Assembly (NCBI GenBank): GCA_964016885.1 | Contig: OZ024743.1 | Coordinates: 169,694,001-169,758,000 of the forward strand | Length of the DNA: 64,000 bases | Source: Eledone cirrhosa | Lineage: Eukaryota | Direction: 5' to 3' | Shown: one piece after another, positions 29,521 through 38,058 of the stretch | How the letters are laid out: each line of letters opens with the position of its first letter | How positions within the stretch are numbered: the first letter of the stretch is position 1 | Notes under the pieces: generated by a model | The model's input: only the letters and a program-made list of their open reading frames with translations | Told to the model about the DNA's origin: nothing | The model's database searches: none | Made by a program: the position numbers and the translations under genes

Positions 29521-32500
29521 CCTAAAGTTGCCAACGCTCCCCGGCTCACAAAACTGGGAATGCTCCCGTTCTGCTGCCAGTTGCAGAAGATGTCTGCCAA
29601 GAGGTTACCGAACAAGTCTGGCATGTACGCATAAAGCTCGTAGGGCAGACCATCCAAACCTGGCGATTTTCCCCTCGTGCAGTCAGACATCGCTTCCCGT
29701 ATTTCACCTGCTGTTATCGGCTTTTCGCAGCACTGCGCTGCGGCCGTCGAGAGCCGCGGCAGTCCGTCGAGGTATGCATCGAAGTCCATACTCCGACCGG
29801 CCCACCGTCGCTCTCGAACAATCGAGCAAAGTGCTGTTAAAAAGCCGCACACATCTGCTCGGTTTAGAGCAACATGCTCCCGTTTTAATCGGGCAAAAAC
29901 CGAATTGTGGATTTGTTGCCACGTCGCGCCTTCACCACTCGGGCCCATTGAACGGCTTTCACCCCCTCGTGTCTCAGAACATGCGCCCTAGCTCTGACAA
30001 CGTAAATTTAATGCTTTGCGTTGTAGAATTGGTCGAGTGCCAATCTCACCGCAAGCACGTCGGTTGCGATGCCTTTACTAAACGTCTCTTCTATCTTTCT
30101 AACCAACTCTCCCTCTACTCTATTTTCTTCTATCACTACTCCTTTGCTAAACCTTATCGATTCTACTCTCATTGCCCTTTTCAGTGTAGACCACCACCTG
30201 TTGTTGACGATCGCACTCGTCAACGCACGCTTAAATAATTCGCTGATCCGGTCTCTGTAACATTTGCGCGACGGGAACGACGCGTTCAGCTTCCAGTAAC
30301 CGGGCGGATGTCTATCTAAGTCAACTTCACAGATCACAAATTTGTGGTCTGTGTAGTCGACTACTTTAAATTGTGGACAACCTACACTAGCCTTATCTGT
30401 TTCCCTACAGAATGCCCTATCTAAATACGATCTGGATGACCCGATGCGGTTTGCCCATGTCTACATTCGCACATTCGGATAATCCAGTCTCTACCTGTCA
30501 GACAGTTCAAAACATCTGAGCAGGTTGTTGAGGCTTTTACACCCTCCTCCTCTGTCTACTAGCCCCACATAATCCCAGCGTGCATCTAAGATACCATTCC
30601 AATCGCCCACTAACACTAAAGAACGGGACGTTCCAAGAAAGCTTTCTAGACGTCTGAAGAAATTTGGCCGTCCTGCCCCTGTTGGGGCGTAGACGGCTAC
30701 TAGCCTGAAAGCATTGTCTTCGCTGCCGGTCACGTCCAGCACCACCGACTTACATTCTGGGTCCAGGAAGATGGTCCGTTTGGCGAGATCCAAGCCTCTT
30801 CGAAAAAGCACAGCCATTCCGCCCCCGCTCCCGGATGGCTGGGAGATGCGTATACATCGTAGCTGCCGAAGATCGGTGCGAAGGCTCGTGATTAGGAGAT
30901 TCTTGTCTCGCTGATGGCCACCATATCTATGTTTAGTGACCTGAAGTCGTTTCGCAGGTGGCCCTGCTTCCAAGATGATCCCAGGCCACGTACATTTATA
31001 CTACCTATTCTAAGTACGGCCATGCTGGGTGAGGAACGGGGTTAGTGAGAAAGGATCACAACTTTGATCGTGTGGGGGAGGGACAGTACAACCGTCCCTT
31101 CGGCTGGTCATGGGTGTCTCCAAGATGACATCTGTGTATATTCTTTTGGAGAGTGACCCCCTGAAAACCCCAACTGAGTTGGGGAATTTTTGTTTTAACC
31201 GTTTATAATCTTCAACTTTAATTTCGACAATGTTAATATTTTTTGGTAATATTCTTGGTGTTGGTGGGGTGTGGTAATTTATGATTGTCATGTCTGTGTG
31301 CTGCTCTATCTGTTCTATTAATTGTTTGTTTGCGATGTTTATGGGCGTGAAATTTTTTTTGGGGTGTGTGGGGTTGTTGCTGTTTTCTTGTTGCTGTTGT
31401 GTGTGTGTGTTGTTATGTTTGCGATGTTGGTGTTTGTGGTGATGCTGGTGGTGGTGTGGTTGTTGTTGGTGGTGATGCTCGTGGTGGTGATGGTGGTGGT
31501 GTTGCTGCATGTCGCCTTGCGGCTTTTACCGCTCTTTCTTTGCCCTCGCTTTTGGAGGACAAAGCTGCGTTGTTTTTGAGTTTGTATTTCTCTTTCAAAC
31601 CGTTTTCCACTCCTCAGACGCCTCATACTCCATATCTGACTGTGAAAGGTCGGGGAGGGGTATGAGTTTTACCCTCTCATGTGTCATTGTTGTTGTCTCT
31701 TTTTTTTCTTTCTTTCTTCTTACCGCAGGCGCCTGAGGATTACCATCAGTAGCGCTAGACTGGCGTGTGGGAGACGCACGAGTTCATCCATGCTGGAGCC
31801 GAGTTGGTGGTGATAACAATCCACCATCAAGGCCGGACATCTCATTCAAAGATGCTCGGAGGATTCTTCTTCCTCTCCGCACAGACGGCATGTGTTGATT
31901 TCCGCTTGGCCGATCATATGGAGCCATCTCCTTAATGACGTGTGGAAGCGGACGAGATGGTTCCTATCTGCTTTGGAGAGAGTTTGCTCATTCTCTTCAT
32001 TTGGGTGGCGGTTAAAGACTGATTGTAGACGTTGATGCTGGATCGGTGGTGGGCGAAATTCCTGGCGAATGACGGCGAGTTGAGTGGCGGCATCGATTGA
32101 ACTTTCCAGTTGAGTAGATGCTGAGCCTTGTTTCGCCTGGGCGTCCGCCAGTTCATTCCCTTTGATGTTGCAGTGCCCCGGGACCCAGACGTCTGCTAAG
32201 GTTCTCCCCTTTGTGATTTTGTTAGCGATCCCTTGCAGCTCGGTAATGAAAGGGTCATGGGGAAGAGATTGTTGACTGCTTGAACCAGCGACTTGCAGTC
32301 ACAGATGACATTGGAGGACTCCCAGCTGGTGTCTGCCTGTAAACATAGAAGGGCTTGTTTGAATGCAATTCTTTCGGAATGAAAAGAACTGCTATGAGCG
32401 CCCGTGGGAGAGTGCCACTCGTGAACTACCTCTTCATTTTAGATGATTACGAGACCGGCACCACCATTGGTTGTACCGTCGTATGTTGATCCATCTGTAT

Positions 32501-35500
32501 ACACGCAAATGTCGACCGGGTGGAGTGTCGATAGATAATCCAGTGCCACTTTAAGTTGTAGTGCTACTGGCATTGATTTGCTCACCGGGGTAAATGTAAC
32601 AGGGATTGGTGGTGGTAATTCCCACGGCGGCTTCTTATGTGGTAGTTGGGTGTCTGTTGTCGAGGGTATGCCAAGACGATCAAGGGCTGGCAGCTGTCTA
32701 CATCGCCAATCAAGATGGCGGAGTCGACGCCTTACGTTAGCATCGAGTAATTGGTTTTGATGATGACGGTGGTGGGGAGGTGTGCCCATTCATCCGCTTT
32801 CAAGAGGGAGAGAGCAACTGTGGAAGGTGTGCTTCAATTAGGACAGCCTCAGTTAGTGTTGTGCGTACATGTCCAGTGATCGCTCGAGCTGCTTCTAGTT
32901 GTGTTCTTTCAAGCTTGCTGACAACCAGGGAGCCCAGCCTGGGGAGCCGTACTCGGCCAGACTGCGGTGCATTGCGATGTATACTTGGCGAAGATCTGCG
33001 GTATGCCAGCCCCAGGAAGTACTCCCAAGGGTGCGCAGGATGTTGACGTGCTGTTGAAGTTTTTGGCAGATCTTTTTAACATGTTCCCCAAGGGAGAGTG
33101 TCCTATCATATGTGACGCCCAAAAAGACGGGATTAGGGTTAAAGGATAGTCTTACCCCGTCAATAGTAATATTTGGTTGCCGCCTCGCTTCTGCACTGGA
33201 TGTTCCAAAGAAGGTTGACTCTCATTTTGATGTGTTAAGTGGGAGTTTAACTTCTTTACTCCATGCTATCACTTTATCCACTTCCTTTTGTAACCGTTAC
33301 GCTATTTCCTCCTTTTTCTTACCGCAGCACGTGATAGCAAGATCATCGGCGTGTGCGCTGACATGTGTTATGTTGTCGAATTGATCGAGTAGACGATTTA
33401 CGAAGATTGTGAAAATCATTGGTGAAAGGACAGAACCTTGCGGTAGCCCTTCTTCATTAATTCGGACTCTTGCTATACGGTTTGTAAACCAGGCGGATAA
33501 CCACTCGACGAAACGCAAGGGAAAGCCAAGCCTCATCATATCTTGCAGAAGTCTTGTTCTCTACACACGATCATAATCGCGGCTAAAATCGAAGAATATA
33601 GCAACGATGCGGTTTCGATCCAACGACTGGGAACCCATCTGAAATGAACTGGGACAATCGGAGGCACTGATCTGTGGTGCTGCGGCCCTTTCTGAAACCA
33701 GCTTGCCAGGGACTAAGAATGGAGTGTTCCTCTAGCCACCAAGTTAACCGGTTCGCAATAAAACGCTCTAAGAGCCTCCCTATCGTTGAGGTTAGCGCAA
33801 TTGGTTGATAACTCCTCACGTCCGCCGGATCTTTCCCTTTTTTATGAAAGGGAACGATAGTCGCCATTCGCCAACCTTGTGGGCACCAATTCTCCAACCA
33901 GCTGAAATTTAGTAGGTCTAACAATGTTTTTAAGGCCGTTGGTGGTAGGTGTTTGAGGAGATCTGGTGCTATCTGGTCGGGACCAGCCGCTTTCTCGGCT
34001 TTTATTTGGTTCAATGCTTTCGTCGACAGTGAAGGCTGCTTCAATCTTATGTCTTGGTTAGTTTCGAGCACCCTGGATGTTGAGTCGTAAACCCCGTACA
34101 TCTTTTCTAGTGTTTTTATCTGGCTTTCTTCCGCTAACTGCGGCATACTCTTGAATGAAAGCTGCAGCCTTCGATCGGTCGCTAGCATGAGTCGCCCCTT
34201 TGTATAGTATGGACTTGCTGTTGTTTGCGCAGCCTTTTCCTGACAACAATCGAACTACTGACCAGGCTCTTTTACTATCTTTCGTCTCGGATATCGTCTG
34301 TAGGTGTTTCCTCCAGGCCTCCCTCTTTCACTCATCTGTTTTTCTAACCACCCCGCTTGAGGTCTCCAACCACTTTTTGCAGCTGAGACGATTGCGTTTT
34401 TGATCAGACATTTTAGCTCCATTGTCATCCATGGGCATTCATTCTTACGGATGGCCTTCAGGGGAACTGCCACGGCTTCTGCCCTTTTATGGAGTGTGAG
34501 AATAGCTGACAATTTACTTGAGGAGAAGCCTTCATCGGAGACTTTGTTAATTCCCTCTTCAACAAATTCCCGGAATTTTGGCCAGTCTGCTTTTTGATAG
34601 TTTCTCCGTGGTTTCTGTCGTGGTCGTTCTACTTGAAGATCGACACCCCAGTGGATAACGATTGGAAGATGATCTGAGCCGAGTCGTTGTATACCATGAG
34701 AATTTGTTGACTGAGTCTAGATCTACTATTGTAAGATCTGGTACACTTATTCCTGTTCCCTGTTGGTATCTCGCGGCTCGCGTCGGAGTCCCATTATTTA
34801 GAATGGATTTGGAGTTGTCTTCAAGCCAGTTGATGATATCTGAACCGCGGGTATGAGCTTTTGCAAACTGGTCCCACGTCGAATGGTGAGCATTGAGATC
34901 TCCGTAGATAATTCCTCGTTCGTTTGATAGATTGTTGATCCAGACGTTGTTATTCGACGGCTGTTGGGCATAGCCAGATTTCTGCGGGGGCAGGTAGGCA
35001 TTTGTGACGGAAAACTGACGTCTACTGGTTAGGTGGATGACAATCCGTTGTTGTTCCAGGGGGCTTGTGTTCACACGTGGTGGTACCGAGTACTGTATGC
35101 CCTGCCGGATGTAGATCATCAGTCCACCGCCACGGTGGTGTAATGTACCGCTGCCTTCCCGGTCCTAGCGAGTTGCGTCATAGCCGTCAATTGTAGGGGT
35201 TGGATCTTCATGCTCCAATTTGGTTTCTTGGATAGTTGCAACGTCTATATTGTGTTTTAATACGAACTCTTTTAATTCTATTATCTTGGATGGAAGGAAA
35301 TCTGCATTCCATTGTAAAAATTGGAGCTTACGTACAGTCGTTCTTGGCATGTTTGTACGTACTGTCGTAGGTGCTGTCTGATCTAGGGTGGTTGGGGGAT
35401 GGCATTGAGCGCAAGTGCTGCATGTCCATTCGTCGTGTTGTCGTAGCCGCTCTAATGCATATCATATTTCAGGTGCGCACTTGAGATGGAATGTGCGGTG

Positions 35501-36201
35501 ACAAGTTTTGCATATAAGCGATTTTTTTTAGTGAGTTAGACGACGTTTACAAGTAGGACAGTCGGTGTTAATGGGTGCAGCGACTTGTGGGACTTGGGTG
35601 GAGTTGGATGAGTTTACAACAGATGTATTATGTACATGGGGGATGGTAATATTCGATGTGTTGTGGGCTAAAATTACATTATCGTTAGTGGGGGGGGGGT
35701 CATTGCTGGTGATAACAAGATATTATGTGGTCAATGGGCTGGTCTCACAGACTGTGCTTGGTTGTGGAGGGTTGTAAAAGTATGTTGGCGGGTTGCTGGG
35801 GGCATGCTAGGCGCTATTGAGTCCTGCGGATGTTGAGATGGGTGTACAATAGGTGGTTGGGGAGATGAAGGTGTTGTGACTGTATAGGTTGAGCATTGCC
35901 ATATGGGGAAAGTGTTATATCGAGAAATACCAGTGCATTTTCTATGCGCAATGTTTGAGCATGATTGACGTTTGCGGATCTTTCCTTGGCATAGGTGGCA
36001 TCGGAGATTTTGATCACTTGCTGGCGATATAAGCGTTGGCACGACGGCTGTTTCCCGTCAGAAACTGCAGACGAAGCTTTGATGACTCTTCTGTTGAACT
36101 CGAGTCAAGCCGCTACATTTCCTGTGGAAATCGCGTCGGCAGGCCGTGCAGATGAATGGTGCGAAGTCTCGGCGAATCATCTTGGCACACCCTGGGCAGA
36201 T

Positions 36202-36249
36202 GGGTCCGGGGTTGATCTGGATGTCGACCACCAGGAGGAGGATTAGCCG
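36202..36249 (-). other. 2A-like (StopGo) peptide motif, degenerate
   Basis: Minus-strand frame RLILLLVVDIQINPGP, immediately followed in frame by the first PHD finger. Consensus is (G)D(V/I)ExNPGP. Confidence 0.75.
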
Positions 36250-36325
36250 GAGTTACAGGGCGGGAGTTGCACCCTCGGTTATAGAAAAACGGTGCGTCTC
36301 CCATGACGCAGTCTTGGTAGGATAT

Positions 36326-36404
36326 GGTCCGAGTTCGTAAGTCGCCTGAAGACGACCCAATACAGCACACCTCTGGAAGGTCTCTGTCCATATAAACGTG
36401 CTGA
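36326..36404 (-). ncRNA. HDV-like self-cleaving ribozyme (degenerate) at the 5' end of the Ingi-like element
   Basis: Manual fold: P1 CAGCAC/GUGCUG; P2 GGACAGAG/CUCGGACC (6 of 8 pairs); P3 ACC/GGU; L3 UUCCAGA; P4 UGGGUCGUC-UUCA-GGCGACUUA; J4/2 CGAA. Confidence 0.7.
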
Positions 36405-38058
36405 CTGCTGTTTCTGCCGCCACTGTCACCACAGGTGTTATTGTCAATACCACCGCCGCTGTTGTTACCTGCATCAGCAGTTGTTGTTGTTGTTGTTGGT
36501 GGAGCCTTGTCTGCCGTTCTTGGCAGAGGTGCAGCTAGTGCAACCGTTTCTGTTGCTGCAGTTGCCGCCGCTTTTTTGTTGTCCGTGACTTTGGTGTTGG
36601 TGCCACGGACGTTGTCCTCCTACTCTCTGTAGATGCTCCCGACCTTTTCGCTGACTGCTCTGTTTCTGATGGCAGCGGTTCCGGCATTGGAAGGAGGGGG
36701 GGCCTTCACCTTTGTTATCTTCTGTGGGCAGAAGGCGCTGAGGTGAGACTTCAATCCACAGTTGAAGCACTTTGGGTGCCTTCCATCCACAGATATGGGA
36801 AGTTGGGAGCCATTCCCGATGTCTATTACGTCGGGAATAGCACTGATACAGTCCTGGTCGGTTTGGATAAGCATCTCCATTCCAATACCGGACCAGTCCT
36901 CTCTCTCCAACTTCTGTACCTGCAGAATGGTTATTCTATCCTCGATGCCCACAAGAACAGACACAATCCAAGGCACGGGTACGTAGGGCGGGACCTGGGT
37001 TACCCTAACCTTTTCAATTTTTTTCCCAGAGTAAAACGGGACTGACGTTATGTAATCACTCCGTAGGGTCCTCAGTGAGTGCGATTTTTCTTCCTGGGTG
37101 GTAGCAAAAAGGACGTCCACGGTAGCATATTTCTTGCCACGGGTGATGTGGGTTTTCCGTACCCACACAGTTCCCAAGACCTTCTGGATTTGGGCCTCCG
37201 TGGTTCTCTCCACACGACACGATTTCGTGCAATTGTGCGGTATGACACTGTGCGTCGCTCTTGTTCCTCCAGGAAGTCGGTTGGTGGTTTCAAGGACACT
37301 GAAAATTTAGTTCTGGTTACCATGTGTCTTGCGACCGCCATCTCCTTCTATGTGACCAGGACTGTTTCTACGTTGCGAGCCACCTTAGCAAAAGAGATGG
37401 TCCCTTTTTCAGTGGCATCATTGTTGCCGCAGATACTGCTGTTACTGGTCTTGTTGTTGGTGCTGTTTCTGTTGCTACTGCTACAAACGGTGTTGTTGGT
37501 GTTGTTGCTGTTATCACTGTTGCAGTTGGTTGTAATTTGGTGCCGCCGTTGTTGTTATTCTCGGTGCAATTTGTATTGTTGTTGTTGGTGTTATCGCTAT
37601 TAATTTTTTTGTTAGTGGTGTTAATTTCGTTGTTGCATTTGTTGTCATTATTTGTTGTCTGTATTTTGGTTGTCGCTGTTACCGTGTGGTCATTTTTTTT
37701 AAAGTTAGTGTTCTCAGTGTTGTTGTCATTGCTGCCTTTGTTCAGGATGTTTGCGGTGGTGTTTGTTGTATCAATTTCTGTGTTCGCCATAACCCTCCTC
37801 TCAACGTTTACGCCACTGTCACACGACAGCAGGCATATCGCTGGAGGGCGTGGCTCAGCCATGTTTTTTTAATAATTTTTTAATTTAAAAAGTTCAAATA
37901 TTTGGGCCAAAAGACCCAAATATTATACTTTCCCCTTCACAGGGCAAAGTCCAACGGCTTATGTCTCTTACACGACAACAAAAATTTACAATAAATGATT
38001 TATGACAGGTAAATAAAGAGACTTACGGGAGCGAGCTAAAAGACGTCCGATCAGACAG

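Follow-up and report, generated by a model that had tools for sequence, protein, structure and literature searches.

The RNA of an Ingi-like LINE from Eledone cirrhosa carries two arms, one just 3′ of an HDV-like ribozyme fold and one in the last codons of the open reading frame (ORF), that are kept complementary and are predicted to loop the RNA. Since the complementarity is found in the family majority and a second family shows compensatory changes, a 5′-3′ cyclisation helix is likely real, judging from the sequences. For its role, we tentatively favor a cyclisation switch in the manner of Ty1 that takes the RNA from translation to reverse transcription, a reading that we hold at somewhat less than even confidence.

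Architecture of the element

The window, a stretch of 64,000 nucleotides, contains a dead copy of the element on its (−) strand, with an HDV-like ribozyme fold, a 2A motif, and AP endonuclease, reverse transcriptase (RT), and RNase H domains (Table 1). Pfam matches, in order in both the broken window copy and the family B frame, place the three domains in a single ORF without ORF1. RNase H is intact in the family B frame (PF00075, E 1.8e-14), and full-length homologues of ~1,480 amino acids have the same domains. A putative 2A motif near the N terminus reads GDIEINPGP in family A and GDVESNPGP in family B; Ingi elements carry 2A, according to an extract of PMC3708506. The protein matches found included no named Ingi or L1Tc sequence; the Ingi-clade label rests on architecture. 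By analogy with other LINEs, the 3′-terminal stem-loop is likely the RT-recognition hairpin. The 3′ arm abuts this conserved hairpin, an adjacency that we count in favor of the switch discussed below.

Table 1. Features of the element in the window (positions in window coordinates)
Feature	Position	Strand	Remarks
Likely target-site duplication, 5′ copy (ACAACAACAA)	36481..36490	-	Sequence; border soft because it lies within a CAA repeat
Remnant of captured leader, which is the 5′ end of a host LINE family in rearranged form	36405..36479	-	Common to most A and B copies
HDV-like ribozyme fold	36326..36404	-	Descriptor matches in family-A loci; window-copy substitutions at 36385 (P2) and 36361 (P1.1)
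5′ arm of long-range helix	36292..36314	-	Alternative local hairpin possible, with purine-rich loop
U-run right 3′ of 5′ arm	36285..36289	-	Sequence
2A-like sequence	36202..36258	-	Family majority reads ...LLLAGDIEINPGP; window copy has a stop and substitutions
AP-endonuclease fragment, broken ORF	34559..35164	-	PF14529, E 6.4e-13
Reverse transcriptase fragment, broken ORF	33583..34254	-	PF00078, E 2.2e-6
RNase H end and C-terminal Cys/His motif, broken ORF	31846..32298	-	PF00075, E 3.1e-4
3′ arm of long-range helix	31757..31779	-	Protein-coding, within the last 20 codons of the ORF (VRLPHAS)
3′-terminal stem-loop, immediately 3′ of 3′ arm	31729..31755	-	Kept in families A and B; private change at 31745 in window copy
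A-rich 3′ tail	31697..31719	-	Sequence
Likely target-site duplication, 3′ copy	31687..31696	-	Sequence

Complementarity of the two arms

An earlier note on this DNA had described two complementary strings, and both are present, at 36314-36292 and 31779-31757; it did not mention that the second of them codes for protein. The element contains no perfect inverted match longer than the 12-nt one of that note (36303-36292 with 31779-31768), and the imperfect match of about 23 nt appears in a repeat search as a 23-nt inverted pair, 78% ungapped. Allowing for two bulges of one base each and a single mismatch, the arms of the window copy give 21 pairs (−34.7 kcal/mol). Its A at 36304 is a private change; in the commonest family form this base is G, and the arms make 13+4+5 = 22 Watson-Crick pairs. 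When the end windows were shuffled with dinucleotide content preserved, such a match arose in 0 of 1000 trials for windows of 100 × 100 and 150 × 150 and in 3 of 1000 for 200 × 200, the 5′ windows beginning at 36360, a start chosen after the match was known. Some 12-nt inverted match occurs somewhere in 141 of 200 whole-element shuffles, so what is unusual is the position and not the length alone.

Co-change between two families

Alignment of other copies, a check that had been named beforehand, bore out the pairing. Complementarity is present in the family majority and, with compensatory changes, in family B, a second family in the Eledone cirrhosa genome (~48% protein identity to family A) that pairs at the same places with different letters. 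All pairs are Watson-Crick and none is G-U (22/22 in A and 19/19 in B), so the helix could form on either strand. Five substitutions separate the 3′ sides of A and B, and each is matched on the 5′ side; a Ser codon difference in the 3′ arm (AGT/TCT) is mirrored in the 5′ arm. Cognate duplexes reach −40.8 and −36.4 kcal/mol versus −26.8 and −26.2 kcal/mol for swapped ones, and the medians over all copy pairs are −35.3/−32.4 versus −25.7/−24.4 kcal/mol. The observed stability was reached in 15 of 20,000 simulations of independent evolution (0.075%) and in 37 of 2,916 under a second null model (1.3%). RNAalifold, given 13 natural two-ended copies, picks a 12-pair shared core unprompted, with 95.5% of cells paired and one column reading AU:7/UA:6. 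This covariation comes from a single split between families, within one genome. MAFFT aligns only one of the two-sided columns, the other two requiring a hand-placed gap. No third close family was found in the Eledone cirrhosa genome, and no further arm variant among the differences listed in DNA sequencing runs of the same organism. Among the sequencing runs listed as containing the sequence, none was of RNA.

Predicted folds

The helix is present in the predicted minimum free energy fold of the full 4.7-kb RNA, and it is predicted to form in 18 of the 19 internally deleted copies folded. In all equilibrium folds but one, the extended helix is the predicted preference. Local folding had been claimed for both strings; the 5′ hairpin does fold (−8.8), whereas the 3′ hairpin is marginal alone (−3.3) and absent in its own context. 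The loop-loop kissing contact proposed in the earlier note is not supported: family B retains only 2 of the 4 pairs of a 3′ stem that is already weak in family A, and the extended helix is preferred. Nor is a 3′CITE-type element with two conserved complementary-loop hairpins, given that the 5′ hairpin is kept in both families and the 3′ hairpin is not. The alternative 5′ hairpin is maintained with different stems in the two families (−10.3 and −13.0), as a switch would need.

Ribozyme and 5′ leader

The 5′ arm does lie just downstream of the ribozyme, the HDV-like fold ending 11 nt upstream of it. This fold, whose layout we take to be CPEB3-type, matches a custom descriptor in 4 of the 7 family-A loci tried, the window copy not being one of them, and was recognized by eye in family B; an Rfam scan of 30000-38000 gave no ribozyme match. 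The further premise of an uncapped, ribozyme-processed RNA is weakened, as an extra leader precedes the ribozyme in 20 of 22 family-B 5′ ends and in 12 of 13 aligned family-A 5′ ends (L006 begins within the ribozyme). Because most inserted copies captured a leader before the ribozyme, their templates were not simply uncapped. In family A, the AUG frame of the leader itself continues through the ribozyme into 2A. Family B has an AUG within the 5′ arm, aligned with CUG in A; if the U-run is 6, it stands 33 codons before the 2A Asn, matching Met1 of P0003. The loop AUG of the window hairpin was rejected as a start codon, being private to the window copy. The U-run seems conserved across the clade, in that 13 of 28 related proteins have a matching V/G-F-F/L/W-type motif at 22-28 residues on the N-terminal side of the 2A Asn. 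Among the U-run lengths of family B, the three frames are about equally represented (5, 6, and 6 of 17 measurable).

More distant elements

Outside families A and B, support for pairing is suggestive only. A and B alone stood out in a local-alignment test of the ends of 18 elements; the other 16, several without a true 5′ or 3′ end, did not. A duplex scan placed L091 (~32% identity to P0003) at rank 2 of 856, at the equivalent place just 3′ of an HDV-like fold, and gave no signal for L103, a distant Ingi-like element for which 14 of 812 did better. One of four non-Ingi controls (L160) also ranked first, so the scan is not specific. Vingi-like families gave no signal in the 45 nt 3′ of the ribozyme (the anchor was misplaced for L073). 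In a wider scan, a short 8+6 bp match ranks first in 5 of 7 full family C copies and 1 of 3 family D copies, and in L286 it is altered on both sides, which is suggestive only; the family C candidate contains a G-U pair. Two Vingi-like copies, L295 and L296, break just before the candidate arm of their family. The family of L085 and L087, which is presumably RTE-like, had no 5′ match in the scan, and for a relative of family C a search for the 3′ end found none. A codon-level antisense test gave p = 0.077 over 19 homologous proteins, with five dropped for atypical C termini. Searches of viral contigs gave nothing useful, and those of genome contigs gave distant LINEs only. By eye and at the protein level only, P0024 has W-D-W before the U-run motif versus P-V-P at the conserved Pro.

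Proposed mechanism

From the arms, their positions, their co-change, and their predicted fold, we infer an order of folding and switching. During RNA synthesis, the 5′ arm would fold locally into a hairpin whose loop is rich in purines. The 3′ arm, through its single-stranded pyrimidine core, could then invade this hairpin and zip up a helix of 19-22 bp. With the 5′ arm adjoining the presumed initiation region and the 3′ arm in the last codons, ribosomes would hold the helix open. Newly made protein might bind the terminal hairpin, allowing the helix to close and shutting off translation. The closed RNA would offer the ribozyme end, the helix, and the terminal hairpin jointly as a template that the RT accepts. 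Closure would favor two-ended RNAs and might explain the amplification of internally deleted, two-ended derivatives. Every deletion junction found at at least two loci retains both arms, down to the 298-nt copy L195, although this is also expected because a 5′ promoter and a 3′ RT signal are needed. Candidates for 3′ ends number 85 versus 18 for 5′ ends, and 5′-truncated copies are still common. Counted against the switch is that R2 SIDEs are accounted for by the ribozyme and 3′ UTR alone (extract of PMC3414825). NARTc has only the first 77 and last 30 nt in common with L1Tc (extract of PMC3383444); such common ends would not include arms positioned as here, and the signal may therefore be missing from part of the clade.

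The helix might instead aid translation as a closed loop, as the earlier note suggested, setting the stop codon and poly(A) beside the 5′ region and delivering ribosomes or initiation factors to a cap-independent start at the pre-2A U-run. We consider this unlikely. It would suit a 5′ arm that ends at a seemingly conserved U-run and an arm AUG in family B, and ribozyme-cut L1Tc RNA is translated poorly, other elements being needed (PMC3383444, in extract). However, so stable a helix (−36 to −41 kcal/mol) over or beside a start should block rather than help, and kissing would require a 3′ hairpin that is not conserved. In most inserted copies a leader lies upstream, with an AUG frame that in family A reaches 2A, and the U-run of family B favors no frame. 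Viral kissing contacts are short. It is quite improbable that the pairing acts in cDNA, where first-strand copies of the arms would pair after RNase H action, hold the cDNA end at the target site, and complete the 5′ junction. The all-Watson-Crick helix fits this role, as does its strong form in the RNase H-bearing families A and B and weak form in two Vingi-like families without RNase H, and three family-A copies (L013, L014, and L016) break within the 5′ arm. Yet few such breakpoints are seen, among them a simple 5-nt microhomology deletion, the family C candidate has its G-U pair, and second-strand synthesis may leave no long single-stranded cDNA. A helix that governs ribozyme folding or shields the RNA ends from decay, rather than serving replication, is very improbable. 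In L1Tc, the ribozyme can be inhibited when sequence 3′ of it refolds (PMC3383444, in extract), and here a mere 11 nt separate the 5′ arm from P2; however, co-transcriptional cleavage would long precede synthesis of the 3′ arm, 4.5 kb away, and a local 5′ hairpin would be enough for insulation.

Two readings grant the match no function. The RT may occasionally recopy one arm from the other, so that the arms stay matched as a by-product. The purely Watson-Crick pairing and the frequent inversions and internal rearrangements in these families point that way, but each helix keeps single-base bulges, in positions that differ between the two. A and B also share an identical 8-nt core although the adjoining ribozymes are too diverged for good alignment, and the alternative 5′ hairpin is maintained too. 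We know of no targeted inverted copying of this kind and think it highly unlikely here. A chance match inherited from the common ancestor of A and B is scarcely credible. Shuffled elements often contain some 12-nt match, and the protein (R-L-P) partly fixes the letters of the 3′ core, but the five matched substitutions and the rarity of the observed stability in both sets of simulations argue against it.

Relation to known systems

Template recognition in LINEs is usually assigned to the 3′ tail alone, and no description of 5′-3′ end pairing in LINEs was found in the literature searched. If true, a selected end-joining helix would add to LINEs a kind of cis-signal that has until now been associated with LTR elements and RNA viruses. 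In Ty1, CYC5-CYC3 pairing is critical for reverse transcription (extract of PMC3681743). As far as that extract goes, Ty1 resembles the present case in the long-range Watson-Crick pairing of a 5′ region of the retroelement RNA with a sequence close to its 3′ end, and in mini-elements that retain both ends. It differs in tRNA priming and in strand transfer between LTRs within a particle, whereas the element here is non-LTR and uses target-primed reverse transcription; CYC function is proven in Ty1, whereas here the pairing comes from sequence and predicted folds. The 5′-3′ cyclisation arms of flaviviruses lie partly in coding or start regions, can fold into local hairpins instead, and switch the RNA between translation and replication. 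The first two traits recur here, but flaviviruses replicate RNA to RNA with a viral RdRp, whereas the present 3′ arm lies in the last codons of an ORF and abuts a LINE terminal hairpin. To our knowledge, non-LTR target-primed reverse transcription involves no strand transfer that needs end pairing. Plant-virus 3′CITE kissing loops share a 5′ hairpin whose exposed purine loop can pair with a pyrimidine tract on the 3′ side, on a possibly capless RNA; here, in contrast, there is no conserved 3′ hairpin loop or CITE-like structure, and the contact reaches 19-22 bp.

Closest in architecture are L1Tc/ingi with NARTc/RIME and the R2 SIDEs, with a 5′ HDV-like ribozyme (a candidate fold in the present element), a 2A motif, and two-ended non-autonomous derivatives (and, for L1Tc, APE-RT-RNase H), but extracts of PMC3383444, PMC5814959, and PMC3414825 describe no 5′-3′ pairing, and how the L1Tc RT recognizes its own RNA is stated among them as unknown. 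Only RTE, Ingi, Vingi, and R2 are reported to yield derivatives that keep both ends but lack ORFs, with cause unknown (Kojima 2018, extract of PMC5786205), a question on which a break-then-restore test of the helix bears. More broadly, and doubtfully, ORF1-less, ribozyme-headed Ingi/Vingi LINEs may require a 5′-3′ cyclisation helix of lineage-specific sequence in their template signal, which would explain both the two-ended non-autonomous elements and the use of both UTRs in gene-writing templates. In Vingi- and RTE-based gene insertion, payloads sit between cognate 5′ and 3′ UTRs (extract of PMC13708176); a template designed from the annotated UTR alone would lose the last-codon arm.

Complementary Ends of a Family-A Element

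The window, taken from a eukaryotic 3.0-Gb assembly, contains a broken LINE (Table). Likely ACAACAACAA duplications flank it on both sides, and its insertion site is the first ORF of another LINE, the host, which we take to be L1/Tx1-like. Other copies of its family (family A) share about 85-97% identity with it; the family is termed Ingi-like by architecture rather than by a tree with named elements. The two complementary strings described in the earlier note lie where it placed them, near opposite ends of the element, and constitute its longest perfect inverted match. A 12-mer inverted match anywhere in the element is common (141 of 200 shuffles); a match restricted to the ends is rare, arising in 0, 0, and 3 per 1000 shuffles for three end windows.

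Features of the family-A element in the window
Feature	Position	Strand	Remarks
Broken single-ORF LINE, family A	~36479 to 31697	minus	AP-endonuclease, RT, and RNase H remnants; 2A-like motif; A-rich tail
Leader remnant	36479-36405		
HDV-like predicted ribozyme fold, window copy	36404-36326	minus	maps there with two substitutions
5' arm	36314-36292	minus	
U-run	36289-36285		~75 nt upstream of the 2A Asn
3' arm	31779-31757	minus	codes VRLPHAS

Of 19 family-A loci considered for the 5' arm, 9 were set aside (incomplete, duplicate, or disrupted inside the arm), and the remaining ten 5' ends keep the arm region intact. A 13-nt perfect core is present in seven of these ends and an 8-nt core in all ten; at the 3' ends, the corresponding counts are 21 and 28 of 40. 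The commonest arm forms join through 22 Watson-Crick pairs; their duplex contains two single-base bulges and has an energy of -40.8 kcal/mol. An AUG in the hairpin loop drawn in the earlier note was rejected as a family feature because it depends on an A at 36304 that is private to the window copy. Three family-A copies (L013, L014, and L016) break inside the 5' arm at positions equivalent to window 36312-36304, two of them at nearly the same base; these are too few to interpret.

Covariation between Two Families

Querying with the RNase H region uncovered a second Ingi-like family in the same genome (family B, about 42-50% identity). Its arms occupy the same places with different letters (AGAGAUGCGAC-G-UGGGAGAC versus GUCUCCCA-GUCGCAUCUCU) and form 11 + 8 pairs. 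Among family-B ends that reach the arm, the 11-mer survives in 18 on the 5' side (n = 22) and in 11 on the 3' side (n = 17); 4 and 3 loci, respectively, fall short of the arm and are left out. Hand alignment of the families shows three pairs that differ in both arms, and an extra base has converted one bulge into a base pair. An AGT/TCT difference between A and B in a Ser codon on the 3' side is mirrored on the 5' side. Cognate duplexes have energies of -40.8 and -36.4, as compared to -26.8 and -26.2 for swapped arms. With arms from copies L010 and L178, the B value was reached in 15 of 20,000 trials of independent arm evolution with the same numbers of changes, and in 37 of 2,916 when the 5' letters were redrawn at the observed places. 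RNAalifold, applied to 13 natural two-ended copies, picked a shared 12-pair core unprompted; the alignment lacks a gap at that point and so displays just one two-sided column. The complementarity, which the earlier note proposed to follow into other copies and relatives, is present in both families with compensatory changes, the whole covariation case being a single lineage split. Judged from sequence, we regard the predicted covarying end-to-end helix in these two families as real, and its pairing is very probably under selection.

Predicted Folding and Two-Ended Derivatives

Folding the complete RNA of the window element (4,714 nt) to its energy minimum yields the arm helix, with 21 pairs. 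The earlier note envisaged kissing hairpin loops. A stable kiss is not supported: the 3' hairpin is weak in isolation (-3.3), does not form in context, and is not retained by family B. An alternative 5'-arm hairpin is predicted in A and in B, its stem differing between them (-10.3 and -13.0). This asymmetry suggests that pairing would likely follow a one-sided path, in which a hairpin loop acts as a toehold for the extended helix.

Both families include internally deleted copies in which 170-800 nt of the 5' end run straight into a 3'-terminal piece of 90-160 nt or longer, and deletion junctions found at several loci retain both arms. Two of the 21 such copies tried have no recognizable 3' arm; among the 19 folded, 18 show 12-22 of the expected arm-arm pairs. 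Arm retention agrees with a requirement for pairing, but it would look no different if the copies needed a promoter at one end and an RT signal at the other. In Kojima 2018 (PMC5786205), two-ended elements of this kind occur only in RTE, Ingi, Vingi, and R2, their cause being left open. According to PMC3383444, the sequence common to L1Tc and NARTc is confined to the initial 77 nt and the final 30 nt.

Possible Roles of the End Helix

The terminal stem-loop lies directly 3' of the 3' arm and is kept in families A and B. Along with Ty1, flaviviruses and 3'CITEs are comparison systems for an end helix. With somewhat less than even confidence, we propose that the helix could be a cyclization switch for reverse transcription, by analogy with Ty1 (PMC3681743). 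A switch would suit a helix that is long and strong and has a conserved alternative fold. Since the helix would cover translated sequence, it could not persist under ribosomes. It would also stack on the terminal hairpin, the presumed binding place of LINE RTs (PMC5814959).

A role in translation is a less likely candidate, to which the conserved U-run and an AUG/CUG within the 5' arm would lend themselves. Fold-back of the cDNA is improbable. Control of the ribozyme or of decay is more doubtful still, as is, to the same degree, a helix arising as a by-product. Chance, to be set beside the shuffles and the simulated arms, is the least probable explanation. Cyclization of this sort would be a known kind of signal. 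For LINEs, no prior report of 5'-3' pairing was found in the available portions of sources including PMC3708506, PMC5786205, PMC13708176, PMC3681743, PMC5814959, PMC3414825, PMC3894237, and PMC3383444, though subscription papers, patents, Repbase notes, or supplements may mention one.

Other Elements

In L091, a distant metagenome element, an HDV-like fold is followed at the equivalent place by an interrupted duplex (-35.3, rank 2 of 856). Duplex ranking gave no such signal in L103, another distant element, and one of four non-Ingi controls also ranked first. In the control L160 (RCNA010001962.1), a 2A-bearing LINE without RNase H, the top duplex pairs a site 285 nt before 2A with the 3' end (-30.6; 0 of 545 internal windows better) and may be chance. 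Two Vingi-like families of the same genome (C and D) were negative in a narrow test. In a wider test, a short 8+6 bp match came out on top in 5 of the 7 C copies and in 1 of the 3 D copies; two family-C copies break just before this match, which counts against it. An RTE-like family showed no end pairing in the wider test. An antisense test at the protein level returned p = 0.077. Long eukaryote-type LINE ORFs were also seen on contigs filed in bacterial MAGs (L170, L172, and L173), probably through bin contamination.

Predicted Ribozyme and Captured Leader

A descriptor search recovered the HDV-like predicted fold in 4 of 7 family-A loci (P1 CAGCAC/GUGCUG, P2 CCGAG/CUCGG, P3 ACC/GGU, a P4 hairpin, and a CGAA linker); Rfam gave no match to that of the window element. 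The fold is separated from the 5' arm by 11 nt, and the arm is followed by the U-run and then 2A. The U-run seems conserved across Ingi-like elements (proteins P0003-P0138) and is a possible non-AUG start or slippage signal. A V/G/F/I/P-F-F/L/S/W/Y motif lies 22-28 residues upstream of the 2A Asn in 13 of 28 proteins, with a peak at 24-25. By eye, the family-B ribozyme, unlike that of A, has an apparent hairpin insertion in the L3 loop region (start of L055; 5' ends L176-L196). The 3-kb families C and D start exactly with compact HDV-like ribozymes (L077, C1:163374280, minus; L073, C3:181666863, minus), that of C presumably closely resembling the CPEB3 layout.

The premise of an uncapped, ribozyme-processed RNA, also from the earlier note, is opposed by what lies upstream. 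Of the copies that reach the ribozyme, 20 of 22 in B and 12 of the 13 aligned in A run on into a common leader, so the templates of inserted copies were mostly uncut there. An exception is the family-B copy L055, which begins at the ribozyme, after a microsatellite. The leader derives from the host LINE family, whose 5' end it carries in rearranged form, and in family A its AUG frame is open through the ribozyme into 2A. Both ribozyme-headed families appear to have taken over one and the same promoter, the AUG frame of the host ORF1 staying open across the ribozyme. The shared leader reaches about 500 nt (full form in L014:916-1440 and L236-L251), carries the first about 290 nt of the host 5' end inverted, and contains a CGCCATTTT motif, which we take to be YY1-like. 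Many family-B copies start sharply at one place within it. Separately, inversion of a copy's first 125-550 nt is seen in L290, L291, L292, L294, L296, and L013. In three of them (L292, L294, and L296), this inverted segment abuts a fragment lying more than 2.3 kb farther downstream, a join that could mean that the 5' end is close to the target site as insertion proceeds.
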